In this document: positions 11,514-34,682 of the stretch, one piece after another | Position numbering within the stretch: the stretch's first letter is position 1 | Layout of the letters: each line of letters opens with the position of its first letter | Assembly: GCA_040902335.1 (NCBI GenBank) | Contig: JBBDXL010000179.1 | Span: 4,775-68,774, forward strand | Length of the DNA stretch: 64,000 nucleotides | Reading direction: 5' to 3' | Source: Burkholderiales bacterium | GTDB lineage: Bacteria; Pseudomonadota; Gammaproteobacteria; Burkholderiales; SG8-39 | Program-made: the position numbers and the translations under genes | Notes under the pieces: generated by a model | Seen by the model: only the letters and a program-made list of their open reading frames with translations | Database searches by the model: none | Told to the model about the DNA's origin: nothing

Positions 11514-11549
11514 GACAGACCTTTCTCGATGTTAACTCATTGGTTATCT

Positions 11550-13290: not shown

Positions 13291-13402
13291 TGAGATTGGA
13301 CTGCGCTTTTTGACATTTGAAGCGGAAGACAAGGCAAGCGCTGCGAGCTTGATTACATTACGTTTCTGAATTTGGAGAGTTTGGGCCGCTCTCGCCTCCC
13401 GC

Positions 13403-13462
13403 GACTCGAAATCTGTTGTGCGCGTAAGCGTACCGGGGGTTCGAATCCCTCTCTCTCCGCCA
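13403..13462 (+). repeat. Duplicate of the 3' 60 nt of tRNA-Ser(CGA) (att-type direct repeat)
   Basis: GACTCGAAATCTGTTGTGCGCGTAAGCGTACCGGGGGTTCGAATCCCTCTCTCTCCGCCA has 1 mismatch to 10994..11053. It has no 5' half, so it is not a functional tRNA. Confidence 0.88.
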
Positions 13463-14776: not shown

Positions 14777-15133
14777 TCAGCCGAGCGGCTTGGCGAGGCT
14801 CACCTCATGCCCGTCCGGATCCGTGAGGTGGAAGTAGCGCTCGCCCCACGGCGCGTCCGCGGGCGCCGCGTGCGGTGCGAGCCCGGCCTGCAGCGCGCGG
14901 CGGTACATCGCGTCGACGTCGTCGACGTGGAAGATCACGCGGCCCCACCATGACCAGCGCTGCTCACGTTCCGCTGCAATGAGGTTGAGATACGACGCGC
15001 CCGCCACGAAGCTCGAGAAGCGGGCGTCGCCGTAGCGCAGGACGAATCCGAGCGCCTGGTAGAACGCGACGGCGCGCGCCATGTCGTGCGTGGCGAGTGT
15101 GACGGCGCTCAAGGATCGGATCAGCGCGCTCAT
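14777..15133 (-). CDS. VOC/glyoxalase-family protein
   Basis: The C-terminal 118 aa of ORF 14777..15427 read MSALIRSLSAVTLATHDMARAVAFYQALGF...YFHLTDPDGHEVSL. Confidence 0.85.
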   Translation of the reverse strand: MSALIRSLSAVTLATHDMARAVAFYQALGFVLRYGDARFSSFVAGASYLNLIAAEREQRWSWWGRVIFHVDDVDAMYRRALQAGLAPHAAPADAPWGERYFHLTDPDGHEVSLAKPLG

Positions 15134-15408
15134 GTGAGCCTTGCGCCGATCTCCTTCTCGTACTCCGGAAAATAACGCGCGATCACGGGCAGCTCGAAGC
15201 TCGCCAGGATCGACGTGTTCGGCTCGCGCTCGAGCAGAAACCGGAAGCTCTCCTCGATGACGCGCTCGGGCGCCACCGCGGCGAGCCCGAGCTTCTCGAG
15301 ATAGCCCTCGGGTATCGTGACTTCGTGCGAGCTCGTCGAGCCCGCGCGCACTTCGACTCGCCAGCGGCGGGCGCCGGCGGGTGCGACCGTGATGGACGGC
15401 GTGCTCAC
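15130..15408 (-). CDS. Small conserved hypothetical protein (~92 aa)
   Basis: From GTG at 15408: VSTPSITVAPAGARRWRVEVRAGSTSSHEVTIPEGYLEKLGLAAVAPERVIEESFRFLLEREPNTSILASFELPVIARYFPEYEKEIGARL. 4-nt overlap with the downstream VOC gene. Its first ~11 codons lie inside the 195-bp repeat. Confidence 0.55.
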   Translation of the reverse strand: MSTPSITVAPAGARRWRVEVRAGSTSSHEVTIPEGYLEKLGLAAVAPERVIEESFRFLLEREPNTSILASFELPVIARYFPEYEKEIGARLT

Positions 15409-15571
15409 CGGCGGAATTCTGCAGCAAAACGGGATTAGCATGGCCGCGTGGAGTCTACGGTCCACAGCCTGTTCCCCACGCTGGTGTGGGAGGCGCGGCT
15501 CGCGCGCGAAGCGTGTGCGCCGCTAAACGACGCCATTCTGCGGCGACTCGCCGCGCTGCGCCGCGGCGCGC
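15377..15571 (+). repeat. Left copy of the ~195-bp direct repeat (partner 33835..34031)
   Basis: By-eye alignment gives roughly 85-90% identity, including GGCGGGTGCGACCGTGATG...GGATTAGCATGGCCGCGTGGAGTCTACGGTCCACAGCCT..TTCCCCAC.CTGGTGTGGGAGGCGCGGCTCGCGCG. Confidence 0.85.
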
Positions 15572-15594
15572 GCGAAGAACAAGGCATGATCTGA
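15448..15594 (+). pseudogene. Truncated 5' copy (48 codons) of the TIGR02466-like 2OG-Fe(II) oxygenase gene at 33907
   Basis: VESTVHSLFPTLVWEARLAREACAPLNDAILRRLAALRRGAREEQGMI* compared with MESTVHSLFPTLVWEARLAREAYAPLNDAILRRLAARRRGA... at 33907. Confidence 0.75.
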
Positions 15595-15721
15595 CGGGGG
15601 CACTTACGTTCCTCCGGAAGCACTGTGCAGGCCCGGCTGTTTCGTGGGGACTGGGCTTCGCGACGCTCGGGCTCGGGGGCATGACTGCCTTACTCTGCGC
15701 CCTGGCGCTGCGCCGTTTTTG

Positions 15722-16465
15722 ATGGATTTCCATCCTTCTCGCTACGTGCGCTTCGTGGCCGGCGGCCGGCAGGTAGGCTGGCTGCGGCCGGAGCTCGCGG
15801 CGCGCCTCGCCGCCTGGCCGGCGGTGTTCGACGCGAACCCCGATGCGGTCACCCTGTTGCAAAAGGACGCGCTGGCGCCGGTCGTCGAGCAGCTGGCACA
15901 GGAAGGCTTCATCCGGGGCTGGCGCAGCGAGCGCTACCGCATTTCGGAGCTCTTCGAGATCGAGCGCGCCGCCGCGCGGCCCTTCGGGCTCACCACCTAC
16001 GCCGTGCACGTCAATGGAATTTCCTTCGATAATAAAAACATGTGGGTCGCGAGGCGCAGCACGGAGAAGCCGATCGACCCGGGCATGCTCGACAACCTGG
16101 TCGGCGGCGGCTTGACGGCGGGACTTTCGGTCGAGGAAGTGCTGGTGAAAGAAGCGTGGGAGGAAGCCGGTATCGGCGCCGAGCTGGCACGCAGCGCGAC
16201 GCGCGGCGGTACCGTGCGCATCCTGCGCGAGGTGCCCGAGGGCGTGCAGTCGGAGGTGATCTACGTCTACGACCTCGCGCTGCCCGACGACTTCGAGCCG
16301 CGGAACCAGGACGGAGAAGTTTCGGAGTTCAGGCAGTTGTCTTTTGAAGCAGTTCTCAACTGCCAGGAATTCACGTTCGAAGCGGCGCTAGTCGCGATGG
16401 ACTATTTCAGCCGACGAAGCGAACCCCCCGGGTCTGGGCGCAGAGTCGTGGATCCGTCGACTTGA
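15722..16465 (+). CDS. NUDIX hydrolase family protein
   Basis: From ATG 15722: MDFHPSRYVRFVAGG... with a Nudix-box-like GGGLTAGLSVEEVLVKEAWEEAGI. Confidence 0.8.
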   Translation: MDFHPSRYVRFVAGGRQVGWLRPELAARLAAWPAVFDANPDAVTLLQKDALAPVVEQLAQEGFIRGWRSERYRISELFEIERAAARPFGLTTYAVHVNGISFDNKNMWVARRSTEKPIDPGMLDNLVGGGLTAGLSVEEVLVKEAWEEAGIGAELARSATRGGTVRILREVPEGVQSEVIYVYDLALPDDFEPRNQDGEVSEFRQLSFEAVLNCQEFTFEAALVAMDYFSRRSEPPGSGRRVVDPST

Positions 16466-17408
16466 CGGTGACCGGCCGGCCGTCCAGGACTTCGCGGCAG
16501 CGCTCGAGCGTCTCCGCTTCCAGGCGCGCCATCGCCTCGTAGCTGTAGAAGCCGAGGTGCGGCGAGAGGATCACGTTGTCCATGGCGTAGAGCGGGCTCA
16601 GGGGATGCCCGGAGCGCGCGAGCGGCTCGCTCGAGAAGACATCGAGCGCTGCGCCCGCGATGCGCCTTTCCTGCAACGCGCGCAGCAGCGCCATCTCGTC
16701 CACGATCGCTCCCCGCGACACATTGACCAGGAACGCCGTCGGCTTCATGCAGCACAGCGCCCCCTCTCCGATCAGATGCCGCGTCTCGGGCGTGAGCACG
16801 CAGTGCACTGAGACGAAATCGCACTCCGCGATCATGGTCCGGAGGTCTGTTCGCAGATCGGCGTGCGCGCTCTGCGACACATGCGGGTCGCAGGCAAGCA
16901 CGCGCATCCGGAAGGCCGCGGCCATGCGCGCGAAGCTTGAGCCGATCCGCCCCAGCCCGACGAGACCGACCGTCTTGCCCGCGAGATCGCTCGCCAGCCA
17001 TTCTCGCGCCGGCCAGATCCAGCCTTCGCGGTCCATCGCGCGCTGGATCGGCTTCAGCTTTTTCGCGAGCGCGATGAGCAGCGCAAAGGCGCCTTCGGCG
17101 ACGGTTTCCTCGGCGTACTCGGGCACGTTGACCACCGGGATGCCGCGGCTGCGCGCGGCCGCGATGTCGATCGCGTCAATGCCGACGCCGTACTTGACGA
17201 TGCCCTTGAGCCTCGCCGCGGCCTCGATGGCGCGACGCGTGACCGGCGTGTAGCACATAAGCAGCAATTCGGCTTCGCGCAATTCGCGCAGCAGCTCGTC
17301 TTCGCTGACGCCGCCAGGCAGAAGCACGAGCTCGTGGCCAGCCGCGCGCAGCGCCGAGTCGACGCGCGGCACCTCGAGCTCGCGGTCGGTGCGAACTATC
17401 CTTGCCAC
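16407..17408 (-). CDS. D-isomer-specific 2-hydroxyacid dehydrogenase family protein
   Basis: 333 aa with [16 protein letters not shown] motif and a C-terminal ...NVILSPHLG catalytic His region. Confidence 0.9.
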
Positions 17409-19714
17409 GGTGCCTTGAGCGCGGCCTTCGCCGCCACCACGCGGCCCGAGACCTCGATCTCGTAGCGGCCGGCAAGAACGCCTTGCGCGGTCTCGGGCTT
17501 CGCCGAGTAAACGAATCCCATCGCCACCATGGTGCCGAGCGAGGCGCTGTAGCCCACCGAGGTCAGCTCGCCCACCGGCTTGTCGTCGCGCAGGATCGGC
17601 TCTCCGCCCCAGGCGAACAGTTCCGTCGCGGGGAAGGTGAACATCAGCAGCCGCTTCGCCAGCCCCGGCTTCGGGGGTTCGCGCTTGTCGCGCCTTACCG
17701 CAAACTCAAGCCCGGCCTCGTAAGGCGTGCAGTCCGGGGACAGCTCGGCGCCGAAGGCGCGCCGGCCGGCCTCGATGCGCAGTGCGTCGAGCGCGTAGTA
17801 GCCGCAATCCTTCAACCCGAGGTCGCTGCCGGCATCCCACAACCGGTCGTAGAGGCTCGCCGCATCCTCCACCGGCACATAGAGCTCCCAGCCCGGTCCG
17901 CCGGCATAGGATGCGGGCACGGCTCGCGCCTCGTCTTTCAATGTCAGTCTTGAAAGCAGAGTGCCGGCGTTCGGCCCGAGCACCGAGATCACCGACCAGG
18001 CGTCGCTCACGTCTTCGACGGTGACGTTTTCGTTGCTCCTTATTTGACGGCGAATCCACGCCGCATCGCGCACCGGCTGCGCCGAGCCCGTGACTATGAA
18101 GAACGCATCGTCGCCCCAGCGCTGCACGGTGACGTCGCTCTCGTAGCCGCCCTTGCGGTTGAGCATCGGTGTATAGGTAAGGCTGCCAATGCGGTTCGCG
18201 CAGACCCGCTCGAGCAGGGTCTGCGCGTCCCGCCCGCGCACGAGAAGCTTGCCGAACGAAGTCTGGTCGAACACGCCCGCCGCCCCGCGCACCGCGCGCT
18301 GCTCGGCAATGCAGGCGTCGAGCCAGTTCGGCCGGCCGAGGGTGTATTGAAGTTTTTCGCCAGTAACGGAAAACCAGTTGGCGCGTTCCCAGCCGAACTT
18401 TGATCCGAACAAGGCGCCTTTCGCCTTCAAGCGCCCGTAGAGCGGCGAGACGCGCAGCGGCCGGCCCGATTCCAGCTCGTGGCGCGGCCAGCGCATCGCG
18501 TAATGCAGGCCGAGCGTCTCCACGGTACGCTCCTTGAGCCATTTCGAATCCGCGGCGAACGCGCCGAAGCGCCGGATATCCACCTCGAACAGGTCCATCG
18601 GTGCCTCGCCGCCCGCGATCCACTCGGCAAGCAGCTTCCCCGCGCCGCCGGCGTTGGCGATCCCCGCGGAGTTGAAGCCGGCGGCGACGAAGTAGCTCCT
18701 GAGCTCCGGTGCCTCGCCCAGGATGAAGTTGCCGTCGGGGGTGAAGCTCTCCGGGCCGTTGAGCAGCAGCTTCACGCCCGCGGTCTCGAGCGCAGGCACG
18801 CGATGCATCGCCGCCTCCATCAACGGCTGGAACTGCTCCCAGTCCTCGGGCAGCAGCTGGAACTCGAACTTCTCCGGTATGCCGCCCATCCCCCAGGGCT
18901 TGGCCACCGGCTCGAAGCCGCCCATGACGAGACCGCCGACCTCCTCCTTGAAATAGATGAAGCCGTCGGGATCGCGCATCACCGGCAGCATCGGATGCAC
19001 GCCCGCGATCGGCCCGGTGACGAGGTAGAAGTGCTCGGCCGAGTGCAGCGGGATGTTGACGCCGCTTTGCGCGCCGAGCGCCCGCGCCCATTGCCCGGCG
19101 CAATTGACCAGTACCGAACATTGAACGTCACCCGCCGTGGTCGCTACACCCGTTAGGGCATTGTTATGCAAACGAACGCCCGTCACGCGCACGCCTTCGT
19201 GGATCTTCACGCCCAGATTGCGCGCCCCCTTGGCGAGGCTTTGCGCCAGGTCCGCCGGGTTTGCCTTGCCGTCGGCGGGAAACCAGAGCGCGCCCTGCAG
19301 GTCGTCGATGCGCAGCAGTGGCCATTTCTCCAGCGCTTCGCGCGGCGTGAGCAGCTCGACCTCGATGCCGAAGCTGCGCGCCATCGCCGCCTGGCGCCGG
19401 AACACGATCCAGCGCTCGGGCGTTCGCGCGACATTCACGCTGCCGCAGCGCTTCCATCCGGTGGCGAGGCCGGTTTCCTGCTCCAACGTCGCGTAAAGCT
19501 GCGTGCCGTACTGGCTCATGCGCGTCATCGAGCGGTTCGGCCGCATCTGGCCGACCAGCCCCGCCGCGTGCCAGGTGGTGCCGCAGGTGAGGCGGCCCTG
19601 GTCGAGGAGGACGATGTCGCGCTTGCCGAGCTTCGCCAGGTGGTAGGCGACGCTTATGCCGACGATGCCGCCGCCGATGACGACGATTGCGGCATGCGAA
19701 GGGAGCCCGGTCAT
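17396..19714 (-). CDS. Dimethylglycine/sarcosine-dehydrogenase-like fusion: FAD-dependent oxidoreductase (DAO) domain plus GcvT-type folate-binding aminomethyltransferase domain
   Basis: From ATG 19714: [31 protein letters not shown]...[12 protein letters not shown] (FAD dinucleotide fold), then ...[13 protein letters not shown]...[10 protein letters not shown]...[11 protein letters not shown] (GcvT-like). The part of track ORF 17396..20113 upstream of 19714 is junk. ATGA overlap with the EamA stop. Confidence 0.88.
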
Positions 19715-20568
19715 GCCTTGAGCGCGATCACGCCGGCCGCGACCGCGAGCGCACCGGCGATGCGGCGTGCGCCGAAGGGTTCCTTCAGCAGCCAGGCGCC
19801 GAGCAGCGCCGCGAAGATCACCGAGGTTTCGCGCAGCGCGGCAATCGCGGCGATCGGCGCGCGCGTCATCGCCCACAGGGCGATGCCGTAGGCCACCACC
19901 GAGCCGGCGCCACCCACGAGACCGCGCACCCAGTAGCGGCCCGCGTAATGCAAAAGCTCGCCGCGGCGCCCCCAGGCGACCATCAGCACGTAGGGAAAGC
20001 CGTCGAGAAAAAAGATCCACAGCGCGTAGCTCTCCGCACGACCCGAGAGCCTGACGCCGGCGCCGTCCACGAGGGTATAGGTAGCGATGATGACGGCATT
20101 CGCGAGCGCCCAAGCGGTCGCGCGGCGGTTATGCAGCCACGAGCCACCGCCGGCGAAGCTGATGCCGATGACGCCGGCGCTGATGAGCATGATCCCCGCC
20201 CACATCCACGCACCCGGGATCTCGCCCAGCATCAGCACCCCGAAACCGGCCACCAGAAGCGGGGCGATGCCGCGCATCAGAGGATAGCCGTGCGAGAGAT
20301 CTCCGGCGCGGTAGGTCGCCACCAGCGCGACGAAATAGCCGATATGGATCGCCACCGACGCCGCGAGGTAGGGCCAGCTCTCCGGCGCCGGGAGCGGAAC
20401 GAAAAGCAGAAACGGGACTGCAACCAGGGCGCCGCCGCCCACCACGCCGGCGAGGTCGAGCGCCGGGTCGCTGCTGCCCTTGATCATCGCGTTCCACGCT
20501 GCGTGGAGCAGCGCGGCGCCGAGCACGGCGAGCGTGACCGGAGCCGACAGCCCGGCCGCTTCGCTCAT
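19711..20568 (-). CDS. EamA/DMT-family transporter
   Basis: 285 aa, about 10 hydrophobic segments, two EamA repeats. Confidence 0.85.
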
Positions 20569-21875
20569 GCAGCGATCGCGGCCTCGACGATGTCGAGCGC
20601 GCGGTCGAGCTCTTCTTCCCGGATGATGAGCGGGGGCGCGAGCACCAGCACGCGACCCTGCCCGACCTTGAACGAGAGCCCCTGCGAGAGGCAGCGGTAC
20701 ATGACCTCCTCGGCCAGCGCCGCGTCGTTCAGCTCGATCCCGAGCAGCAGGCCGATGCCGCGCACGTCGGCGACTGCAGGATGCCTCATCTCCCGTAACC
20801 GGGCGAGGGCTCGTTCACCGAGGCGCGTTGCGCGTGCAAGCAGATCCTCGGATTCGACGACCTCGAGCGCGGCAAGTGCCGCGGCGCAGCCGACCGGGCT
20901 CTTCTCGTGCGTGTAGTGGCCGAGCGCGCGCTCGCCCGCGATATCGAGGCCGGCGCGCGCGACGAGCGCCGCCATCGGAAACACGCCCCCGCCGAGGCCT
21001 TTCCCCAGCACCACCATGTCGGGAACGATGCCGTAGCGCTCGAAAGCGAACATCGTTCCGGTACGGCCAAGGCCCACCGCGATCTCGTCGAGGACGAGAA
21101 GCGCGCCGTGACGGTCGCAGGCCGCGCGCAGCTTCTCGTAGTAATCGGGCGGCGGCACCTGCACGTCGGTCGAGCGCACCGTTTCCACCACCACCGCCGC
21201 GACGTCCTCCTCCTTGCCGAGCACGTACTCGACGTAGTCGGCGCAGCGCGCGTTGCAGGCGCCGTTGCAGCCGAAATGGCAGTTGCGCGGATCGCAGGGC
21301 TGCACGTGCTCGGTGCCGGACAGGAGCGGCCCGATGTCGCGGCGAAACAGAGCTTCACCGCCGAGCGAGATCGCGTCCAGGGAGGCGCCGTGGAACGAGT
21401 CCCACATCGAAAGCGTCTTGTGCCGGCCGGTGGCGAGGCGCGCGAGCTTGAGCGCCATGCCGATCGCCTCGGTGCCGCCGGGCGCGAATAGGACCTTCCC
21501 CAGATCGCCGGGCGCAAGGCGTGCGAGCCTGCGCGCAAGGGCGACGGCGGTCTCGTTGGTGTAGCGGCGCGGCGAGAAGGGAAGCGTATCGAGCGCGCGC
21601 TTCACCGCTTCGATCACGCGCGGATGGCCGTGGCCGACCTGGTGCACGCTGTTGCCGTGGAAATCCATCACCCGGCGGCCTTCCAGGTCCTCGAGCCAGA
21701 TTCCCGAGGCCGACTTGAGCGCGCTCAGGCAGGGCGTGGACAGCGACTGGTGCAGGAAATAGCGCGCGTCCTCGGCGAGCAGCGCCCGGGTGGCGGGACC
21801 GAGCTTGTCCGCTTGCCATTGTCCGCGCCGCGGCGAAAGATTGACGTCGCCCTCCGCGGACCGGTCCCTAGGCAT
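20565..21875 (-). CDS. Class-III (omega) PLP aminotransferase-fold enzyme; position suggests a PbfA-type enzyme
   Basis: 436 aa: ...DFHGNSVHQVGHGHPRV..., DEIAVGLGRTGTMFAFE.., GKGLGGG.FPMAA. It sits between phnX and the exporter in the AEP locus. The PbfA assignment is inference from context only. Confidence 0.85.
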   Translation of the reverse strand: MPRDRSAEGDVNLSPRRGQWQADKLGPATRALLAEDARYFLHQSLSTPCLSALKSASGIWLEDLEGRRVMDFHGNSVHQVGHGHPRVIEAVKRALDTLPFSPRRYTNETAVALARRLARLAPGDLGKVLFAPGGTEAIGMALKLARLATGRHKTLSMWDSFHGASLDAISLGGEALFRRDIGPLLSGTEHVQPCDPRNCHFGCNGACNARCADYVEYVLGKEEDVAAVVVETVRSTDVQVPPPDYYEKLRAACDRHGALLVLDEIAVGLGRTGTMFAFERYGIVPDMVVLGKGLGGGVFPMAALVARAGLDIAGERALGHYTHEKSPVGCAAALAALEVVESEDLLARATRLGERALARLREMRHPAVADVRGIGLLLGIELNDAALAEEVMYRCLSQGLSFKVGQGRVLVLAPPLIIREEELDRALDIVEAAIAA

Positions 21876-22242
21876 GCTTTTGGTTGGCCGTGCCGTTGAC
21901 GAATTCCTCGCGCAGGCGCGTCGGCGCGAGCGCCCCCGCCTGCTCGAGGATCGGGTAGGCGACCGAGCAGATGTGCGAGTTGATGCGCTTGAAGTCGTTG
22001 ATGATGTCGAGGTGAAGGGAGCTCGTCTCGATCGACTGCACCGTCTGCCAGGCGAGGCGGTTCAGGTGCGCGTCGCCGTACTGGCGCTCGAGGTTGCGGA
22101 ACTCGACCTTGGTCCCGAGCAGCATCTGCGCGCTCTTCAGGTCGCCGTTGAGGAATACGTTCAGCCCCAGGCGCAGGTTTGCGACCAGGCGCCCCCAAAC
22201 GAGCAGCGCGATTCCCGAGAGGATGCTGACCAGCGTGTGCAT
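21868..22242 (-). pseudogene. Na/Pi-cotransporter (YjbB/NptA-like) C-terminal PhoU-like fragment, 124 aa
   Basis: ..SIETSSLHLDIINDFKRINSHICSVAYPILE.. is the characteristic C-terminal region of ~550-aa Na/Pi cotransporter family proteins. The whole membrane domain is absent. It may still be translated as a stand-alone PhoU-like protein. Confidence 0.55.
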
Positions 22243-22261
22243 CAGGTTCTTGCCTTTGGCG

Positions 22262-23092
22262 TCAGGCCGCTTCCCCGCGTCGGATGCGCGCCTGAATGTC
22301 GTCGATGCAGGGCATGATATCCGCGATGGTATCCACTACATAGTGTGCACCGCATTGCCCCATGCGTGTGCGGGCGCGCTCGCGCTTCACCCGCTGCTCG
22401 GCTTCCGCTAACGCCTGCCACTGCTTGAGCGTCAATCCCACCTCGTTGCCGCTGACCGCGAGCCCGATGGTCCACATTCCGGCGTTCAGGCCCTCCTCGA
22501 CGCCGGGAACGGTGTCGTCGATCTTGACGCAGGCCTGCACCGTGCTCACGCGGAGATTGATCACGTTCTGCAGGCACATATAGGGATAGGGGCGCCCGGC
22601 GGGCACGTCGGCCGCGCAGACCGTGGCGTCCGGCTGGTAGCCCTGGCGCTTCGCGTCTGCGAGATTGATCTTCATCATTTCGGTGAGATAGCCGGTGGTC
22701 GAGCCGATCTTGATGCCGCGCGCGCGCAGCTCCGCGACCGCCTCCAGCGTGCCCGGAATGAGGGCCGAATAGTTGGACAGGCACTCGAGCTGCAGCGGCA
22801 CGAAATCGGCGAACATCGCGCTCACGTCGTCGTCGTCAGGTGTCCGCCCGTGCGCCTCCTGCCAGCGCCGGCGCACCGAGTCGAGCTCGGTGATGCGCTG
22901 GATGTGCACGCGCTTGTGCGCTCCCATGGGCGCGCGCGCCTCCTCGATGGTGATCGGCACCTGCTTGCGCCGGAATACCTCCACGAACACCACTGCCGGC
23001 GCCATGCAGCCGAAGTCCATGGTGGTTCCGGCCCAGTCGAGCAGCACCGCCTCGATCGGCCCGCGGTAGCTGCGCTTATAGCTGAAGTTCAT
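22262..23092 (-). CDS. phnX: Phosphonoacetaldehyde hydrolase (phosphonatase)
   Basis: 276 aa. AVLLDWAGTTMDFGCMAP is the HAD motif I with the phosphonatase-type context. Strong SD GGGGAGGG. Confidence 0.92.
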   Translation of the reverse strand: MNFSYKRSYRGPIEAVLLDWAGTTMDFGCMAPAVVFVEVFRRKQVPITIEEARAPMGAHKRVHIQRITELDSVRRRWQEAHGRTPDDDDVSAMFADFVPLQLECLSNYSALIPGTLEAVAELRARGIKIGSTTGYLTEMMKINLADAKRQGYQPDATVCAADVPAGRPYPYMCLQNVINLRVSTVQACVKIDDTVPGVEEGLNAGMWTIGLAVSGNEVGLTLKQWQALAEAEQRVKRERARTRMGQCGAHYVVDTIADIMPCIDDIQARIRRGEAA

Positions 23093-23155
23093 TCACCCTC
23101 CCCCGCGAGTTAAGTGTATCGTATGTCGCTTGTGGTCCACCAAGGGGAGGGAGTC

Positions 23156-24178: not shown

Positions 24179-24222
24179 CGCGGCCGATACGGTTCGGCGG
24201 GGCCCTTGTTTCCAGCGGCGCC

Positions 24223-25326: not shown

Positions 25327-25337
25327 GCGCCGCACGC

Positions 25338-27044
25338 ATGGCCAACGCCACAGCCGCTCGAGCCGTTCTACCCAGGATTCGCGCCTCCCTGAGCCTCGAC
25401 GACTGGGTCATGCGCGCGGCCGTGGTGGTCCTCGGCCTGTGGCTGCTGGCCGCAGTCATCGTGCCCCTCTACGTGCTGCTGTCCAAGAGTTTTCAGGCGA
25501 AGGGCGGCAGCTTCATCGGTCTTGCGAACTACGTCGAGTATTTCTCCACGCCGGCGCTGTTTTACTCCATCTACAACAGCCTGACGATCGCCGTCATCAG
25601 TACGGTGATCACGATCGCACTGGCGTTCGTTTTCGCCTATGCCCTGACCCGCAGCTGCATGCCGGGCAAGGCGTTCTTCCGCGGCGCCGCCTTCGTCCCG
25701 ATCCTCGCGCCCTCGCTGCTCCCGGGGATCTCCTTCGTCTATCTCTTCGGCAATCAGGGCATGATCAAGGAGCTGCTGATGGGGCACTCGATCTACGGTC
25801 CCATCGGCATCGTCATGGGCGAGGTGTTCTGGACCTTTCCGCATGCGCTGATCATCATCACCACGGCGCTGTCGCTCTCCGATTCCCGGTTGTACGAGGC
25901 GGCCGTGGCTTTGCGCGCGAGCAGGCTTCGGGCCTTCTTCACGGTGACTTTGCCGGGGGCCAAGTACGGTCTGCTCAGCGCCTGCTCGGTGGTGTTCACG
26001 CTGGTGATCACCGACTTCGGCGTGCCGAAGGTGATCGGCGGCCAGTACAACGTGCTCGCCGTCGACGTCTACAAGCAGGTGATCGGCCAGCAAAACTTCG
26101 AGATGGGAGCGGTCGTGGGCATGGTGCTGCTGCTGCCGGCCGTCATCGCCTTCATCGCCGACCGGCTGGTGCAGCGCAAGCAGATTGCGCTGCTATCCGC
26201 GCGCGCCGTGCCCTACGAGCCAAAGCCGAACAAGGCGCTCGACAGCTCCATGTTCATCTTCTGCACCGTCGTCAGCATCCTGATCCTCGGCATCCTCGCG
26301 GCCGCGGCCTTTGCCTCGCTGGTCAAGCTCTGGCCGTACAACCTGACGCTCTCGCTCAAGCACTACCAGTTCGACTTGATGGACGGCGGCAGCTGGGGTG
26401 CGTACTACAACAGTCTCAAGATGGCGCTCTGGACGGCGGTGGTGGGAACGGCCGTGATCTTCAGCGGCGCCTATCTCGTCGAGAAGACCAAGGGGTTCGG
26501 CCGTACACGGTCGTTCGTGCAGTTCATGGCGATCATACCGCTCGCCGTGCCCGGCATCGTGCTCGGACTTTCCTACATCTTCTTCTTCAACGATCCGGCG
26601 AACCCCTTTCACTTCATCTACGGAACGATGGCGATCCTCGTGATCTGCACCATCGTGCACTTCTATACCGTCGCCCATCTCACGGCGGTCACGGCATTGA
26701 AGCAGCTGGATCCGGAGTTCGAGGCGGTCTCGGCCTCGCTCAAGGTGCCGTTCTACAAGACCTTCGCCCGCGTCACCGTGCCCGTGTGCGTACCGGCGAT
26801 CCTGAGCATCTCCATCTATCTGTTCCTCAACGCCATGACCACGGTGTCGGCCGTGGTCTTTCTGTACTCGCCGGACACGGCGCTCGCCTCGGTAGCCGTG
26901 CTGAACATGGACGACGCGGGCGACATCGCCCCGGCGGCGGCCATGGCGATGATGATCGTCTATACCTCGGCCGGCGTGCGTGTGCTGCACGCGCTCGCCA
27001 CGCGCGGCATCGCCCGCAGGACGCAGCGCTGGCGCACGCGCTAG
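25338..27044 (+). CDS. AEP-type ABC transporter fused double permease (PhnU2-like)
   Basis: From ATG 25338: 568 aa with two tandem permease modules, about 12 TM segments. Confidence 0.88.
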
Positions 27045-27063
27045 CTTCAGGGAGCCCCGTGAA

Positions 27064-28203
27064 ATGAAACAACCCATCCTGCTCACCCCCGGCCCGCTCA
27101 CCACCTCGAGCGCGACCAAGCTCGCCATGATGCGCGACTGGGGCTCGCGCGATTCGGGCTTCATCGAGCTCAACCGTCTGGTCCGCGACATGCTGTTGGA
27201 TGTCGTTCATGGAAAGGAAATTCACGTCTGCGTGCCGCTCCAGGGCAGCGGCACCTTCGCCGTCGAGGCGGCGCTCGGCACGCTGGTGCCGCGCGAGGGC
27301 CATGTGCTGGTGCCGCTCAACGGCGCCTACTGCAGGCGCATCGCGCGCATCTGCGCCATCCTCGGCCGGCGCACCACTACTCTCGATTTTCAGGAGGATG
27401 AACCTGTGAAAGCCGCGGACATCGACGCCATCCTGTCCCGCGACCCCTCGATCACGCACGTTGCCCTGGTGCACTGCGAGACCAGCACCGGGGTTCTCAA
27501 TCCTCTAGAAGAGATCGCCGAAAGTGTCGCCCGCCACAAACGCAGCTTGATCGTCGACGCCATGAGCTCGTTCGCGGCGCTCGAGATCGACGCGCGCAAG
27601 ACCCCGTTCGACGCGCTGGTGGCGGCCTCCGGCAAATGCCTCGAAGGCCCGCCGGGAATGGGCTTCGCGCTTGCCCGCCGCGCGGCGCTCGAGAAATGCG
27701 CCGGAAATTCGCCCTCGCTGGTGCTCGACCTCCACGACCAGTGGGTCAACATGGAGAAGACCGCGCAGTGGCGCTTTACGCCGCCGACCGTGGTGCTCGC
27801 CGCGCTGCACGCCGCGCTCGAGCAGTTCGTCGCCGAAGGCGGCCAGCCCGCGCGCCTCGCGCGCTACCGCAGGAACTGCGAGGTGCTGATCGAGGGCATG
27901 ACGCGTCTCGGCTTCAAGCCGTTCCTCGAGCCGCGCCACCAGGCGCCGGTCATCGTGACGTTCCACGCCCCCGCCGATCCGAGCTACGATTTCCAGCGCT
28001 TCTACGACCGCGTGCGCGAGAAGGGCTTCGTGCTCTACCCCGGAAAGCTCACCCAGGTCGACACGCTGCGCGTGGGCTGCATCGGCGCGATCGACGAGAA
28101 CGTCCTGCGCGCCGCGGTGCACGCGATCGCCGACACGCTCGCCGAGCAGGGCATCCGGCTCCATGAATCTGGTTCTGTTCGATCTCGACAATACGCTCCT
28201 TAG
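27064..28203 (+). CDS. phnW: 2-aminoethylphosphonate--pyruvate transaminase
   Basis: From ATG 27064: [15 protein letters not shown]... class-V aminotransferase with the characteristic PhnW N-terminus (..MRDWGSRD..) and ..[13 protein letters not shown] (PLP Lys). Confidence 0.92.
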
Positions 28204-28819
28204 CGGCGACACCGATTTCGAGTGGCTCGCTTTCCTTGTCGAGCAAGGGGTTCTTTCCAGTTCCGACCAGGAAGCAAATGCCGAAATGGATCACCGCTAC
28301 CGCAGCGGCGACGCCGGCGCGCTCGAGTATGTACGCTTCTACCTGGGCTTCTATGCGCCCCACGGCATGGCTGCGCTCCTCGCCTGGCGCGACAAGTTCT
28401 TCCGCACCAGAATCGAGCGGCGAATTTCGCGCGCGGCGCGAGCGCTGGTGGAGTCGCATCGCAACGACCTCGTCGCGATCGTCACCGCGACCAACCGCTT
28501 CCTCACCGAGCCGATCGCCGCGGCGTTCGGCGTCGAGCACCTCATCGCCACCGAGCCCGAGATGGTCGCGGGCCGGTTCACGGGCGAGGTCGCCGGGACG
28601 CCGTGCATGCGCGAGGGCAAGATCGAGCGGCTCGAAGCGTGGCTTGCCTCCCGCGGCAGCTCGCTCGCCGATTACGCCGAGACCTGGTTCTACAGCGATT
28701 CGATCAACGACCTGCCGCTGCTCGAGCGCGTGACGCACCCGGTGGCCGTGGATGCCGACTCAAAGCTCGAGCGGCTCGCGCGCGAGCGGGGGTGGACGAT
28801 ATTGCACCTGCCCCGCTGA
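28163..28819 (+). CDS. HAD-IB family hydrolase/phosphatase (SerB-like)
   Basis: 218 aa with motif [10 protein letters not shown] and C-terminal ..[11 protein letters not shown]. 41-nt overlap with phnW. Confidence 0.85.
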
Positions 28820-29115
28820 CGGCCGGGGGGCGCTGCCGAGCCAAGTGCTCGACGATTTCGAGGAACGCGCTGACGAGCCGCGCGAGTGGCCGCAAAACGC
28901 GGTCCTTCCCCTCATGTACCATCCCATCGCCGACATCGCGCCCTACATTGGCGGCGTGCCGGCGGGCAATCGAGCCCTTTGACGTAAGGAGCATTGCGAT
29001 CGGGCTGCGCTTCGCCTCGGCCTGGAATTCAGCCCTTCGCTTCTTGACGCTTTCTGGAACCCGGAGCGAGACAGCCATGGTCTCGCGTTTGTATCACAAT
29101 TGAGATAGATCGATT

Positions 29116-30483
29116 ATGAGTGAAACGGAAGCTGGGCCGAGGGGAATGCTTCAGCCCGAGCAGCTGCGTACGCTGGTCGGGAAAGGCGAGATCGAAACCG
29201 TCGTCGTCGGCTTCACCGACCACTACGGCCGCCTGCTGGGCAAGCGCTTCGACGCCGAGTTTTTCGTCGAGGAGATCTGCAGCCAGGGGGCGCACGCCTG
29301 CGACTATCTGCTGACGGTCGACATGGAGATGGATCCGGTGCCGGGGTATCGCTTCGCCAACTGGGAGCTCGGCTACGGCGACTTTCATCTGGTGCCCGAC
29401 CTGGGCACGCTGCGCCTCGCGAGCTGGCTCGACAAAAGCGCGCTGGTGCTCTGCGACGTGAAAAGTGAAAAGATGCACGAGTATGTGGCCGTGGCGCCGC
29501 GCTCGATCCTGCGCCGGCAAATCGACGCCGCAAGCGCGCGGGGATACACAGCCTTCGCCGCCTCCGAGCTCGAGCACTACCTCTTCCGCACGAGCTACCG
29601 CGAGGCGGCCCAGCGCGACTACCGTGACCTCGAGCCCGCGGGCTGGTACCTGGAGGACTATCATATCCTGCAGGGCACGCGCACCGAAAGCTTCCACGCC
29701 GCGGCGCGCCGCCACCTGAAGCTCTCGGGCGTGCCGGTCGAGAACTCGAAAGGAGAATGGGGCGCGGGGCAGCACGAGCTGAACGTGCGCTATGCCAGCG
29801 TCCTGGAAATGGCCGACCGCCACGTGGTGTTCAAGCAATGCCTCAAGGAGCTCGCGGAGGCGGCAGGCATGAGCCTCACCTTCATGGCCAAGTTCGCCTC
29901 CGACCGGGCAGGCTCGAGCTGCCACATCCACTTCAGCCTCCGGCGCGATGGGAAGAACGTCTTTGAGAAAGGCGGCGACCTTTTCCGCTGGTTCCTCGCG
30001 GGCTGGATGGCACACGTGCCCGACGTCATGGTGTTCTACGCGCCGACCGTCAATTCGTACAAGCGCTACGTGGACGCCTCCTGGGCGCCGACGCGGCTCG
30101 CCTGGAGCTACGACAACCGCACGGCGGGCTTCCGCGTCGTGGGCGACGGCCCGGGCCTGCGCATCGAATGCCGCATTCCCGGCGCCGACTGCAATCCCTA
30201 CCTCGCTTTCTCCGCCGCGCTCGCCTCGGGCCTTGACGGCATCGCCGGCCGGCTCGAGCCGCCCGCATGCTTCGTCGGCGACGTCTACGCGGCGAAAAGC
30301 CTGCCGCGGGTGCCGCATACGCTCAGCGAAGCAGCAGATCTTTTTTCAAACAGTGATTTTACGAAGCGCGCGTTCGGCGCGGAGGTGGTGGAGCACTACA
30401 CGCATTTCTTTCGCACCGAAGCAGCCGCCTTCGACAAGGCGGTCACCGATTGGGAGCGCAAGCGCTACTTCGAAAGAATATGA
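29116..30483 (+). CDS. Glutamine-synthetase-family enzyme, gamma-glutamyl-amine synthetase type (PuuA/GlnA3/GlnA4-like)
   Basis: 455 aa: ..EWGAGQHELNVRY.. and ..NSYKRY..WAPT...WSYDNRTAGFRV.. GS catalytic motifs. No AT-adenylylation context. Confidence 0.88.
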   Translation: MSETEAGPRGMLQPEQLRTLVGKGEIETVVVGFTDHYGRLLGKRFDAEFFVEEICSQGAHACDYLLTVDMEMDPVPGYRFANWELGYGDFHLVPDLGTLRLASWLDKSALVLCDVKSEKMHEYVAVAPRSILRRQIDAASARGYTAFAASELEHYLFRTSYREAAQRDYRDLEPAGWYLEDYHILQGTRTESFHAAARRHLKLSGVPVENSKGEWGAGQHELNVRYASVLEMADRHVVFKQCLKELAEAAGMSLTFMAKFASDRAGSSCHIHFSLRRDGKNVFEKGGDLFRWFLAGWMAHVPDVMVFYAPTVNSYKRYVDASWAPTRLAWSYDNRTAGFRVVGDGPGLRIECRIPGADCNPYLAFSAALASGLDGIAGRLEPPACFVGDVYAAKSLPRVPHTLSEAADLFSNSDFTKRAFGAEVVEHYTHFFRTEAAAFDKAVTDWERKRYFERI

Positions 30484-31253
30484 GACTCGAACACAAGGTT
30501 GCCCTGATCACCGGCGCCGGCAGCGGCATCGGCCGGCAGACCGCACTGCTTTTTGCCAAGGAAGGCGCGGCGGTGCTCGCGGTCGACGTGAACGAGCAGG
30601 CCGCCGCCGAAACCGTCGTGCTGATCAGGCAGGCGGGCGGCCGCGCCGTCGCCTGCCACGCCGACGTGTCGAAAGCGCGCGACTGCCAGCAGATGGTCGC
30701 CGCGGTCGAGAAGGAGTTCGGCCGGCTCGACGTGCTGTTCAACAACGCCGGCATCATGCACGCCACGGACGACGACGCCGTCTCCACCGACGAGAGCGTC
30801 TGGGACCTGACGCTCGACATCAACGCCAAGGGCGTCTTCCTCGGCTGCAAGTACGGCATCCCGGCGCTGCGCCGCGCAGGCGGCGGCTCGGTCATCAACA
30901 CCGCTTCGTTCGTGGCGCGGCTCGGCGCCGCCACGCCGCAAATCGCCTACACCGCGAGCAAGGGCGCCGTGCTCGCGATGACCCGCGAGCTCGCGGTCGT
31001 CCACGCCCGCCAGGGCATCCGCGTCAACGCGCTCTGCCCGGGGCCGCTGCGCACCGAGCTTCTCATGAGCTACCTCGACACCGAAGAGAAGCGCCAGCGG
31101 CGCCTGGTGCACGTGCCGATGGGGCGCTTCGGCGAGGCGCAGGAAATCGCCTACGCCGCCCTCTACCTCGCCTCCGACGAATCCTCCTTCGTCACCGGCA
31201 CCGAGTTCCTGGTCGACGGCGGCCTCACCGCGGCCTACGTCACGCCGGAATGA
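30480..31253 (+). CDS. SDR-family dehydrogenase
   Basis: From ATG 30480 (ATGA overlap with the GS-like stop): MRLEHKVALITGAGSGIGR..., NNAG, YTASKGAV catalytic YxxxK. Confidence 0.9.
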   Translation: MRLEHKVALITGAGSGIGRQTALLFAKEGAAVLAVDVNEQAAAETVVLIRQAGGRAVACHADVSKARDCQQMVAAVEKEFGRLDVLFNNAGIMHATDDDAVSTDESVWDLTLDINAKGVFLGCKYGIPALRRAGGGSVINTASFVARLGAATPQIAYTASKGAVLAMTRELAVVHARQGIRVNALCPGPLRTELLMSYLDTEEKRQRRLVHVPMGRFGEAQEIAYAALYLASDESSFVTGTEFLVDGGLTAAYVTPE

Positions 31254-31518
31254 GATATCTCGAAGACTTTGCGGTGGGTCAGACCTTCGGCTCCGGCCGG
31301 CTGCGCGTCGACAAACAGCGGGTCATGGCCTTCGCCGCCGAATTCGCCCCGGCGACGAGTTGCACCTCGACATCGAAGTGATGGAGGTGCGGCCGTCGAA
31401 GTCGCGCCCGGAGCAGGGCTTGATCAAGGTCAAGACCACGACGCTCAATCAGGACGGCGAGGCGGTACAGGTCACCATCGGGAATCTGGTCGTGCCATGC
31501 CGCCCGGTGAAAGAATGA
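31250..31518 (+). pseudogene. MaoC-like (R)-hydratase/dehydratase gene with internal deletion and frameshift
   Basis: The N-terminal MRYLEDFAVGQTFGSGRLRVDKQRVMAFAAEF.. runs into a stop at 31381. The C-terminal ..GDELHLDIEVMEVRPSKSRPEQGLIKVKTTTLNQDGEAVQVTIGNLVVPCRPVKE* continues in another frame. The central hot-dog core (I estimate ~70 aa) is missing. ATGA overlaps are kept at both ends. Confidence 0.7.
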
Positions 31519-32882
31519 TCAGCCCGGTCGACGGCTCGGTTTATGTACAGCGCGAGCCGCCCTCCGACGCGGCGATCGAAGCTGCGCTCGCCAAAGCGGC
31601 AGATTCTCAACAAATTTGGAAACGAGTGCCGGTCGCCGAGCGCGCCGCGATCTGCTGCCGCATGGCCGACTGGTGCGTCGAGCGGGCCGACGAGCTTGGC
31701 AGAGAACTGACCTGGCAGATCGGCCGGCCGATCGCGCACAGCCCCCTGGAGCTGCGCCGCGGTTTCCATGAGCGCGCTCAGCACATGTGCGCCATCGCCG
31801 AAGAGGCGTTGGGAGATCTGAATTCAGAGCCCAAACCCGGATTTCGCCGCTTCATCCGCCGCGAGCCGCTCGGCGTGGTGCTGGTGCTCGCGCCCTGGAA
31901 TTACCCCTGGCTCACTTCAGTCAATGCGGTGGTGCCCGCGCTGCTAGCCGGCAACACGGTGCTCCTGAAGATGGCGGCGCAGACACCCCTTGTCGCCGAG
32001 CGCTACCGCCAGGCTTTCGACGCCGCCGGGCTGCCGGAAGGCGCATTCCAGTTCCTGCATCTCGATCACGCTCAGGTGGCGCGCGTCATCGCAGACTCCC
32101 GCATCGGCTTTGTTGCCTTTACCGGCTCGGTCGGCGGCGGGCATGCCGTGCAGCGCGCCGCGGCCGGGCGCTTCATCGCCACCGGGCTCGAGCTCGGCGG
32201 CAAGGATCCCGCCTACGTCCGGGCCGACGCGCCGCTCGAGGCGACCGTCGAAAACCTGGTCGATGGCGCCTACTTCAACTCAGGGCAGTCCTGTTGTGCG
32301 GTGGAACGCATTTACGTCCACAAGAATGTTCTTAAGAACTTCGTGGAAGGCTTCGTCGAGCTCACCAGGCAGTACCGGCTCGGCAATCCGCTCGATCCGC
32401 AAACCACGCTCGGGCCGCTGGTGCGCAAGGAAGCCGCCGACAACGTGCGCGCGCAGATCCGCGACGCGCTGGACAAAGGGGCCAGGGCGCTTCTCGACAC
32501 GAGAGGCGATAAAGCGGGCACCCCGTATCTTCCCCCGCAGGTGCTGGTCGATGTCCATCACGGCATGGCGGTGATGGCCGATGAGACCTTCGGGCCGGTG
32601 GTCGGTATCCAGCGCGTCGAGAACGACGAGGAAGCGATCGCGCTCATGAACGACAGCCGCTACGGGTTGACGGCCTCGATCTGGACCTGCAACGTCGAGG
32701 CCGCCATCCGGATCGGCGATCGCGTCGAGACCGGCACCTGGTTCATGAATCGCTGCGACTACCTCGATCCTGCGCTCGCCTGGACCGGAGTCAAAGACTC
32801 GGGGCGCGGCTGCACGCTTTCCCGGCTGGGGCTCGAAACTTTCACCCGACCGAAGTCGTTTCACCTGCGGCTGAGCCTGTGA
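31515..32882 (+). CDS. NAD(P)-dependent aldehyde dehydrogenase
   Basis: From ATG 31515: MISPVDGSVYVQ... with ..LELGGKDPAYV.. and ..FNSGQSCCAVERIYV.. (catalytic Glu and Cys motifs). Confidence 0.9.
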   Translation: MISPVDGSVYVQREPPSDAAIEAALAKAADSQQIWKRVPVAERAAICCRMADWCVERADELGRELTWQIGRPIAHSPLELRRGFHERAQHMCAIAEEALGDLNSEPKPGFRRFIRREPLGVVLVLAPWNYPWLTSVNAVVPALLAGNTVLLKMAAQTPLVAERYRQAFDAAGLPEGAFQFLHLDHAQVARVIADSRIGFVAFTGSVGGGHAVQRAAAGRFIATGLELGGKDPAYVRADAPLEATVENLVDGAYFNSGQSCCAVERIYVHKNVLKNFVEGFVELTRQYRLGNPLDPQTTLGPLVRKEAADNVRAQIRDALDKGARALLDTRGDKAGTPYLPPQVLVDVHHGMAVMADETFGPVVGIQRVENDEEAIALMNDSRYGLTASIWTCNVEAAIRIGDRVETGTWFMNRCDYLDPALAWTGVKDSGRGCTLSRLGLETFTRPKSFHLRLSL

Positions 32883-32903
32883 TAGATTGCCTGCGCCCTA
32901 ACG

Positions 32904-33045
32904 CCTCGCGTGGGAGAGACCGACTCCGGCCGGCGCCGAAGGGGTAACGCGCCCCGCAAAACTCTCAGGCAATAGGACCGCGCGAGGCTGGGCACTCTGG
33001 AGAGAAGGCCCGAGCGGCCTCGCCGAAGGCTACAAGCTGAAAAAA
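32904..33045 (+). promoter_or_regulatory. Glycine riboswitch: one complete aptamer (32904..32987) followed by a partial second aptamer (about 32991..33045)
   Basis: Aptamer 1 has P1 CCTCGCG/CGCGAGG, GGGAGAG, GCGCCGAAGGGG-TAACGCG-CCCC, and AAACTCTCAGGCAATAGGAC. The second unit has CACTCTGGAGAG, hairpin AGGCC-CGAG-CGGCCT and CGCCGAAGG but lacks the 3' CTCAGGCA..GGAC half. The ATG of the downstream gene is at 33053. Confidence 0.78.
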
Positions 33046-33052
33046 CCGGGCT

Positions 33053-33763
33053 ATGCACATCGGCCTGCTTGAATGCGATAACGTCGCCGGACGCTTTTCC
33101 CATATCGAGGGCGGCTATCGCGAGATGTTCGCCGCGCTGCTGCCCGGCGCGCGATTCAGCTATTACGAGGCGTGGAAGAACGAGCTGCCCGCGAGCGCGG
33201 ACGCCTGCGGCGCATGGGTGTGCAGCGGATCGCAGTATTCGGTCTACGACAAGATGGAATGGGTCGGCGCCCTGTCGCGGCTCGTGCAGACGTTGCATGA
33301 AGAAAAGCGACCCTACGTCGGCATCTGCTTCGGCCACCAGATGCTGGCGCAGGCGCTGGGCGGCGAGGTGGCGCGCGCCGCGCGGGGATGGGGAGTGGGC
33401 GTCCACGACGTGCAGGTCCTGCGGCAGGAACCGTGGATGCAGCCGCCCCAATCACATTTCCGCATCCATCACATGCACGCGGATCAGGTGCAGCGGCTGC
33501 CGCCGGACAGCGTGGTGCTTGGAAGCAGCGCCCACTGCGAGGTGGCGATGTTCCGCGTCGGCGACTCGATGCTCGGCATCGAAGGGCATCCGGAATTCAC
33601 CGCGGCATTCAGCGAGGCGCTGATCCGGGCCCGCGCCGACCGTATCGGCGTCGAGCGCGTGCAGGCCGGGCTCGCCAGCCTTGGCCAGCCAACGGACGGC
33701 GCCGTTGTCGGGCGATGGATCGCGCAGTTCCTGGAACGGAAGGATGCGGGATCGTCGGTCTGA
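33053..33763 (+). CDS. Class-I glutamine amidotransferase-like protein (GATase1; gamma-glutamyl hydrolase candidate)
   Basis: 236 aa: ..PYVGICFGHQMLAQALGG.. (nucleophile Cys elbow) and ..GIEGHPEF.. (His/Glu). Confidence 0.85.
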   Translation: MHIGLLECDNVAGRFSHIEGGYREMFAALLPGARFSYYEAWKNELPASADACGAWVCSGSQYSVYDKMEWVGALSRLVQTLHEEKRPYVGICFGHQMLAQALGGEVARAARGWGVGVHDVQVLRQEPWMQPPQSHFRIHHMHADQVQRLPPDSVVLGSSAHCEVAMFRVGDSMLGIEGHPEFTAAFSEALIRARADRIGVERVQAGLASLGQPTDGAVVGRWIAQFLERKDAGSSV

Positions 33764-33798
33764 TGCGGCGCCGATTCAGGCGGTGGCTGCGGCGAGAG

Positions 33799-33867
33799 CT
33801 ACGCGGTCGAATTCACGGTGCGCAATCCGGCGAGGGCGGGTGCGACCGTGATGAAGCGGGCGCTCAT
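33799..33867 (-). pseudogene. 22-codon remnant of the small hypothetical gene found intact at 15130..15408
   Basis: MSARFITVAPALAGLRTVNSTA* compared with VSTPSITVAPAGARRWRV... at 15408. It lies partly in the right copy of the direct repeat. Confidence 0.6.
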
Positions 33868-34031
33868 CGGCGGGATTTTGCGGCAAAACCGGATTAGCAT
33901 GGCCGCGTGGAGTCTACGGTCCACAGCCTCTTCCCCACACTGGTGTGGGAGGCGCGGCTCGCGCGTGAAGCGTATGCGCCGCTGAACGACGCCATTTTAC
34001 GCCGGCTCGCCGCGCGGCGCCGCGGCGCGCC
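33835..34031 (+). repeat. Right copy of the ~195-bp direct repeat (partner 15377..15571)
   Basis: See the left copy. Same orientation, 18.46 kb apart. Confidence 0.85.
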
Positions 34032-34536: not shown

Positions 34537-34682
34537 GGGCACCCGCGCGCGTTTGCTGCACCGCTCGTCCGGGGCGCGTGCGCCATTCGTCAGCTTCCGG
34601 CGCAAGATTCTGTAGCGGCACGGCATTCGTTCCTCGCCCCGCACGCCCCGGCGCGCGACGCTGGCGGCGCAGGAGGTGGCAC

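Follow-up and report, generated by a model that had tools for sequence, protein, structure and literature searches.

The 64,000-nt stretch considered here, called the window at its full length, is part of contig JBBDXL010000179.1 from a Burkholderiales bacterium, a soil betaproteobacterium, and the subject of this analysis is an 18,257-bp insert (15572..33828) flanked by two copies of a 202-nt direct repeat. The left repeat copy (15370..15571) holds the 5′ end of a small open reading frame (ORF), a 39-bp intergenic region and codons 1-41 of a divergently oriented oxygenase gene, and the right copy (33829..34030) repeats this region in the same orientation. Alignment with MAFFT and a repeat finder gives 180 identical positions out of 202 (89.1%), with no gap and 22 differences; the longest identical runs are 39, 26 and 19 nt, and the copies are spaced 18,459 bp start-to-start. 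These values refine an initial annotation of the locus, in which repeats of ~195 bp had been judged by eye to be 85-90% identical.

The two genes that meet in the repeat are each intact on one side of the insert and truncated on the other. On the left, the small ORF is complete (15130..15408, minus strand, 92 aa), and the oxygenase gene is reduced to a stub of 48 codons (15448..15594, plus strand), 41 of them homologous and seven foreign, before a stop codon is reached. On the right, the oxygenase gene is complete (33907..34536, plus strand, 209 aa, with matches to PF13759 (2OG-FeII_Oxy_5) and TIGR02466), and the small ORF is reduced to 22 codons (33799..33867, minus strand), of which 13 are homologous and nine are read in insert DNA. 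The translations thereby bear out the reciprocal truncation of two divergent genes described initially: an intact 92-aa gene faces a 41-codon stub, and a 13-codon stub faces an intact oxygenase gene. The small ORF has no family match in Pfam and NCBIfam scans; its stop codon overlaps the start of the adjacent glyoxalase gene (ATGA), and it is 84-93% identical at the amino acid level to its orthologues in relatives, some of which do not have it. When the 202-nt unit is used as a BLAST query, the window yields only two copies and each of 28 related loci a single orthologous one, and the most conserved core of the repeat, GGATTAGCATG, is present solely in the two repeat copies. The repeat is thus not a dispersed multicopy element, which had been named at the outset as the case that would speak against an insertion.

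Genes of the window and of the insert were annotated with Pfam and NCBIfam scans. To the left of the insert lie MgsA, serS (9668-10945), tRNA-Ser(CGA) (10964-11053), a 2.4-kb island, an SDR gene, a cupin gene and, on the minus strand, the glyoxalase gene and the small ORF; to the right, the second repeat copy is followed by the oxygenase gene, p141, AlgH, XDH, TonB and an ABC system. The insert itself opens with a NUDIX/DUF4743 gene, followed on the minus strand by genes for a 2-hydroxyacid dehydrogenase, a DAO-GCV_T oxidase, a phn_DUF6 EamA protein, PbfA, a PhoU-like protein and PhnX. The second part comprises phnS2 with its ABC and permease genes, PhnW, HAD, a glutamine-synthetase-like gene, SDR, a MaoC remnant, an aldehyde dehydrogenase and a GATase. 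A core for 2-aminoethylphosphonate (2-AEP) catabolism extends over 20565..28203, with PbfA (20565-21875, minus strand), PhnX (22262-23092, minus strand), phnS2/ABC/permease (23114-27044, plus strand) and PhnW (about 27064-28203, plus strand). PbfA, PhnX, PhnW and phnS2 score above the cut-offs of NCBIfam equivalog models. With enzyme roles taken from published work on 2-AEP genes (PMC8154272, PMC10590968), the cargo is predicted to serve the uptake and breakdown of 2-AEP and its hydroxylated form, together with gamma-glutamyl-type or amine-handling functions. Every gene of the insert belongs to a metabolic or transport family, and the gaps between genes are shorter than 300 bp; the insert is so gene-dense that no room is left for a recombinase gene. 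Indeed, no integrase, transposase or other recombinase gene was found among all insert genes in the Pfam and NCBIfam scans, and the repeat finder detected no terminal inverted repeats pairing the two insert ends.

The left end of the imported block is a remnant of an ordinary gene. Positions 15627..15719 (plus strand) encode the last 30 codons of an MFS_1 transporter, with 83-87% amino acid identity to the C-termini of the MFS genes located upstream of NUDIX in two relatives (L182 and L183). In both relatives the MFS gene overlaps the NUDIX start, and in L182 it is whole. The first 6.4 kb of the insert (15625-21990) are colinear with L182 at 79.8% identity, in a setting that is ordinary chromosome: LeuA, MFS, NUDIX, 2-hydroxyacid dehydrogenase, DAO-GCV_T, EamA and PbfA. 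As shown by the truncated MFS gene and this colinearity, the insert is an ordinary piece of chromosome cut inside a gene, and not a self-mobile element with defined ends. The comparison of base composition and codon usage proposed in the initial annotation sets the insert apart as well. The GC content is 66.4%, against about 70.5% in the flanks, and the mean GC at third codon positions (GC3) is 0.864 against 0.919 in the backbone (Mann-Whitney p = 1.7e-5). A contig from the Logan collection (L185) matches the window at 98.7% identity beginning with the NUDIX start codon (15721-16582), and its positions 1-137, compared with window positions 15585-15721, consist of unrelated DNA of ~50% GC in place of the MFS remnant and the repeat. 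In L185, either the block stands in a second context or a near-identical strain has received a further insertion.

The informative source for the site before insertion is metagenome proteins and contigs; among species-representative genomes, the oxygenase query returned relatives of at most 64% identity, none with a shared neighbourhood. An empty site, in which the small ORF or the glyoxalase gene lies beside the oxygenase gene and the insert is absent, is present in no fewer than 13 metagenome contigs, which represent several lineages with DNA identities of about 86-92%. The small ORF is directly divergent from a full oxygenase gene in L082-L086, L090, L092-L094 and L101, and the glyoxalase gene takes that position in L091 and L095-L098, where the small ORF is absent. 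Downstream, L091 and L081 resemble the window into p106/p141, and L081 does so further through AlgH and XDH. The empty arrangement predicted in the initial annotation thus exists, and relatives do not all share the arrangement of the window; together with the reciprocal stubs and the lower GC and GC3 of the insert, it supports the original reading of the locus as the footprint of an insertion with duplication of the target region. Oxygenase homologues on L087 and L088 (73-76% identity) were rejected as empty-site relatives, since their contexts are unrelated.

The 18.3-kb block was seen in the window's own population only, represented by ten contigs from JGI, ENA and Logan at 97-99.7% identity. 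The right junction is carried by six independent assemblies (L172-L177), and four short Logan contigs (L178-L181) end inside the right repeat. A 20.3-kb contig of this population (JGI Ga0395804_0002864, 20,324 bp) carries the full NUDIX gene; from coordinate arithmetic, its start is predicted near window position 15230, past the left junction. A NUDIX variant is also present on a contig of 26,719 bp, and a JGI contig of 6,376 bp has a small ORF with 97% identity to that of the window. The empty-site contigs L092-L094 and the occupied contigs L176 and L177 come from the same JGI samples (Ga0214471, Ga0214472), and a second JGI series (Ga03957xx-Ga03958xx) contributes further contigs of both kinds from sibling samples. 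Since haplotypes with and without the insert were sampled by the same metagenome projects, gain of the block could be tied to phosphorus or nitrogen supply.

The relatives also differ among themselves. The small ORF is a presence/absence polymorphism: in L091 and L095-L098 the loss spans precisely the interval from the glyoxalase start codon to the small-ORF start codon, and GCTCAT precedes both of these start codons. A 3-kb DctPQM cassette (TRAP transporter) stands between the oxygenase gene and p141 in L082, L086, L090 and L095 and is absent from the window (34537-34560), L081 and L091. A TPP-enzyme gene lies between serS and the tRNA in L082, and an FMN-reductase gene lies between serS and the tRNA in L081 and 3′ of the tRNA in L091. 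Downstream of serS, the locus is built as a mosaic of cassettes on a backbone that can be reconstructed as serS, tRNA, (FMN reductase), SDR, cupin, glyoxalase, (small ORF), oxygenase, (DctPQM), p141, AlgH and XDH, the brackets marking variable members.

Both ends of the duplicated segment lie at or close to a 17-nt GC-rich quasi-palindrome, CGGCGGGCGCCGGCKGG, of which exactly two exact copies exist in the window. The first, M1 (15365..15381, plus strand, CGGCGGGCGCCGGCGGG), contains the left edge of the duplicated segment (15370-15376), and the second, M2 (34040..34056, plus strand, CGGCGGGCGCCGGCTGG), lies 9 nt beyond its right edge, so that M1 and M2 form direct repeats 216 bp apart that frame the segment. 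The best inverted-repeat score around the two boundaries exceeds that of 5000 out of 5000 random window pairs with the same spacing, and the best direct-repeat score has p = 0.004. Positions 15354-15385 (small-ORF codons APAGARRW) and 34031-34062 (oxygenase codons PPAGAGW) also pair as an inverted repeat of ~31 nt (complementarity roughly 85%, two gaps of 1 nt), which would bracket the duplicated segment in the empty site.

The junctions themselves differ in complexity. On the left, about 55 nt of filler (15572..15626) separate the repeat end (15571) from the MFS remnant. The first ~20 nt of this filler (GCGAAGAACAAGGCATGATC) resemble the boundary between the end of mgsA and the start of serS, located 5.9 kb upstream (25/27 to L082 888-914), and GGCGCGC is common to the filler and this boundary at the join. 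Such a score is reached by 5% of random 62-nt queries (95th percentile, empirical p about 0.05), and the snippet is for this reason a weak lead only. On the right, 65 nt follow the GATase stop codon before homology resumes at 33829, with an ambiguous CCGGCG/GGCG overlap, and the ten related contigs all have the same 65 nt.

An independent event also involves M1. In L081, a deletion has removed SDR, cupin, glyoxalase and the greater part of the small ORF; its endpoint lies at ~15374, inside M1 and within about 6 nt of the edge of the right repeat copy. In this contig (1-1000), 15 bp separate the tRNA from the small-ORF stub. As the overlaps at its junctions amount to only a few nucleotides, L081 is probably not an assembly chimera. 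Common ancestry of this junction and the right junction of the window, proposed from a TCGAAYTCAC sequence to the left of the boundary, was dropped (p = 0.115); because this shared sequence is not significant, the coincidence is read as a shared hotspot and not as shared descent. It has crossed our minds, as a doubtful conjecture built on these comparisons, that CGGCGGGCGCCGGCKGG may be a recurrent and enzyme-independent fragile or joining site for the capture and loss of DNA. If this were true, short hairpin-forming motifs inside coding DNA could determine the places at which these genomes capture and lose non-mobile DNA.

The 22 differences between the repeat copies are distributed unevenly. 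The rare or unique state is in the right copy at 16 sites and in the left copy at six. Between relatives, divergence in the 202-bp region usually amounts to about half of that in the body of the small ORF, and the left copy follows this rule, with 4.5-7.4% divergence against 10.8-11.7% for the small-ORF body in the three nearest relatives. The right copy stands at 8.9-11.4%, against 7.5-9.7% for the rest of its own gene in four of six relatives. Changes are densest in the dead small-ORF stub, and in the live oxygenase half of the right copy five of six are synonymous. The left copy therefore behaves as an orthologue under normal constraint, and constraint on the right copy looks relaxed, a pattern that fits two copies diverging in place under different constraints. 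The right copy also has three to four intergenic states in common with L086 and L090, which could reflect later allelic exchange.

The insert is decaying and is at an early stage of this process, as judged from a deleted MaoC-like gene and from spacer deletions. The MaoC-like remnant (31254..31510, plus strand), located between the SDR and aldehyde dehydrogenase genes, is internally deleted, and it is missing altogether from the otherwise 99% identical contigs L172-L175. In the spacer 28843-29056, two segments of 63 and 119 bp (182 bp in total) are kept in the window and lost in the same four contigs. Three damaged genes had been reported in the insert at first. The damage is real in the 3′ remnant of MFS, the MaoC-like remnant and the decayed spacer, and it does not extend to the long overlapping ORFs of DAO/GCV_T, ABC and permease, which were rejected as damaged genes because they are over-extended start calls in high-GC DNA.

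Two further patches of the window have a distinct composition. A separate 2.4-kb island of low GC (58.7%; 10964-13462) lies at the 3′ end of tRNA-Ser(CGA). It encodes a truncated tyrosine integrase (11058-11513, minus strand), of which only the C-terminal catalytic part is left, and a 517-aa Fic-domain protein (11640-13193), and its borders are marked by 60-bp direct repeats of the tRNA 3′ end (10994-11053 and 13403-13462). In L091, an AbiEi/AbiEii island occupies the same tRNA in place of the Fic island, and the 3′ 60 nt of its tRNA (254-313) are 100% identical to the window copy at 13403-13462. Initially, integrase, transposase and tRNA had been described as lacking at the insert borders; this holds for both borders, and it has to be completed by this tRNA-Ser and truncated integrase 4.3 kb to the left, which belong to the separate island. 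At the right end of the window, a low-GC segment (61975-63157; 58-63%) encodes a DUF6883 protein, a second glyoxalase-family protein and a ParE-type toxin, and may be another acquired patch.

Altogether, these features lead to a model in which the block was gained by recombinase-independent insertion with duplication of its target, and we regard this as very probable. The ancestral order would have been serS, tRNA-Ser, SDR, cupin, glyoxalase and small ORF, then, divergently, oxygenase, p141, AlgH and XDH, with the starts of the small ORF and of the oxygenase gene only 39 bp apart. An 18,257-bp piece of chromosome, reaching from the interior of an MFS gene to 65 bp past GATase, would have been joined into the 5′ region that the two genes share. 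With starts so close together, an insertion without duplication would be expected to cut one of the genes or to part it from its upstream region. As the 202-bp target is present on both sides, both genes survived, each with its start and the region upstream of it. Scans of the two repeat copies for sigma-70 promoters found none, and the idea that the duplication preserved both promoters consequently rests only on the 39-bp spacing. After insertion, the copies would have diverged to their 22 differences, mostly in the right copy, and decay of the insert would have begun.

The joining step itself could have been a single crossover of Campbell type, performed by RecA-type recombination between the chromosome and a circularised, non-replicating DNA made of the block and one copy of the 202-bp target. 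The ends of the 202-bp segment, at or next to M1 and M2, would then be preferred points of breakage or joining; this is the role that we infer for the motif. The single-crossover route is ranked first because it gives the observed anatomy directly and because it has a precedent in Escherichia coli conjugation, where single crossovers of circular molecules gave flanking duplications of 109-950 bp in 56 of 60 clones (PMC3240628). At this locus a contiguous target segment is directly duplicated on both sides with reciprocal truncation, as in Campbell-type insertion, and its 202 bp of homology fall inside that experimental range. The model of insertion and duplication with this route included has, in our judgement, an even chance of being right. 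That the block was gained, and that a circular intermediate was involved, are likewise what we infer from the features of the locus.

Several observations weigh against this account. No circular form was seen, and searches of plasmids with the whole insert and with the left junction returned nothing, or gene-level matches of ~75% to 2-AEP transporters. A single crossover presupposes a circle that already contained the 202-bp piece, which moves the question of origin one step back. A foreign circle would predict that the repeat copies stem from two population alleles; the 'circle' and 'recipient' alleles that can be rebuilt from the two repeat copies fit no relative better than the unrecombined copies do, and on these data a single crossover with a foreign copy cannot be told apart from duplication in place. 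No isogenic empty site was found, all empty-site lineages being at least 8% diverged. Finally, the left junction was read in the window only, and its complexity, with filler and a possible templated snippet, fits a template switch equally well.

Such a template switch is the second-ranked route, and we consider it unlikely but possible. In this scenario, replication would have stalled before M2, switched by microhomology to other templates, copied the mgsA/serS snippet and then the 18-kb block, returned at M1 and re-copied 202 bp, all in one step resembling microhomology-mediated break-induced replication or fork stalling and template switching (MMBIR/FoSTeS). It would account for a left repeat copy that stops 9 nt before the M2 position and a right copy that begins inside M1, for the ~55 nt of filler with its 25/27 match and GGCGCGC at the join, and for the ambiguous overlap at the right junction; the divergence of the copies also fits two initially identical copies. 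Against it, the snippet match reaches no more than the 95th percentile of random queries, and template switching that copies 18 kb processively is less well documented in bacteria than single-crossover integration.

The third-ranked route, which we hold to be rather improbable, comprises two steps: a tandem duplication of ~216 bp between M1 and M2, by slippage or unequal exchange, and the later capture of the block at the resulting hybrid motif, with removal of about 14 nt. Tandem duplication between short repeats is frequent, and M1 and M2, as direct repeats identical at 16 of 17 positions, bracket the duplicated segment almost exactly; such a duplication would be neutral, both genes staying intact, and L081 shows M1 as a breakpoint in an independent event. 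The insert would nevertheless have to land within about 14 nt of the duplication junction, which would be a coincidence unless the hybrid motif is fragile, and the duplication without the insert is present in no relative examined.

It is very unlikely that the block is ancestral at this site and that the empty relatives lost it by recombination between the repeats. Such recombination would yield exactly the empty site, and identical runs of 39 and 26 nt are available for it. Repeats with reciprocal stubs nevertheless require an insertion with duplication in the first place, and the empty site is spread over many lineages, some of them more distant and some lacking the small ORF, among which the insert-bearing genomes are apparently nested and not basal. 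The truncated MFS end, with MFS intact in a different chromosomal context in L182/L183, and the deviating GC3 of the insert also argue against ancestry here.

Site-specific integration and transposition are excluded by the missing recombinase, the arbitrary ends, the 202-bp duplication and the lack of terminal inverted repeats. One variant, an integrative element that used the 202-bp repeat as attachment site, with an integrase acting in trans or as a remnant of the tRNA-Ser island, has next to no likelihood. It draws on the flanking direct repeats and on the tRNA-Ser and integrase fragment 4.3 kb away, but this fragment is part of the separate 2.4-kb island, which a 60-bp tRNA repeat of its own delimits, there is no third copy of the tRNA near 33.8 kb, the insert is without a recombinase gene and ends in a truncated ordinary gene, and the 202-bp repeat, which covers the 5′ ends of two genes, far exceeds known core sites in length. 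Equally hard to credit is a contig chimera joined through the repeat: although the source contig possibly comes from a metagenome bin and short contigs from other samples break inside the repeat, both junctions run from the repeat into unique sequence, the right one is reproduced in six independent assemblies, the 20.3-kb contig carries NUDIX, and the repeat copies differ at 22 sites.

Placed among known systems, the insert is unlike transposons and composite insertion sequences (IS), which have a transposase, terminal inverted repeats and target duplications of 2-14 bp; here there is no transposase and no inverted repeat pairing the ends, and the duplication is 202 bp long. Integrative elements are flanked by repeats of a short core at which they attach, in most cases the 3′ end of a tRNA or another gene. 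The insert shares with tRNA-linked integrase islands, such as the Fic island in the window, the arrangement of foreign-looking DNA between direct repeats that restore the interrupted gene or genes. It differs from them in having no integrase, no tRNA target or tRNA-derived copy at 33.8 kb, a 202-bp repeat laid across two divergent 5′ ends, and arbitrary ends where recurring defined ones would be expected, the left end being an MFS remnant and the block being colinear with the ordinary chromosome of L182.

There is a close likeness to Campbell-type insertion-duplication (PMC3240628), with a target of a few hundred bp directly duplicated, reciprocally truncated genes, and neither an element enzyme nor specific ends. 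In contrast to those experiments, the event described here is natural and old, with copies 11% diverged, no circle was observed, and the duplicated segment ends at a 17-nt quasi-palindrome. Homology-facilitated illegitimate recombination and transformation-induced merodiploidy (PMC3240628, PMC3784515) are also related, through the uptake of non-mobile DNA, joining at short homology and duplication as a by-product. Classical homology-facilitated events, however, delete recipient DNA between the anchor and the join, where a duplication is found here, and the published merodiploids (PMC3240628, PMC3784515) are tandem duplications of 100-900 kb bounded by IS-derived repeats, unlike this insert. 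The cargo, with its equivalog matches above cut-offs, resembles hydrolytic 2-AEP clusters composed of PhnW, PhnX, PbfA and a transporter (PMC8154272, PMC10590968), and departs from them in being joined to gamma-glutamyl-type genes inside an insertion. The locus thus provides a well-resolved natural example of a catabolic block gained without mobile-element machinery, in which duplication of a shared divergent 5′ region let the insertion land between two genes and harm neither. Compared with these systems, it is an event of a known kind and not a new kind of system, and its unusual detail is that the breakpoints are framed by a motif.

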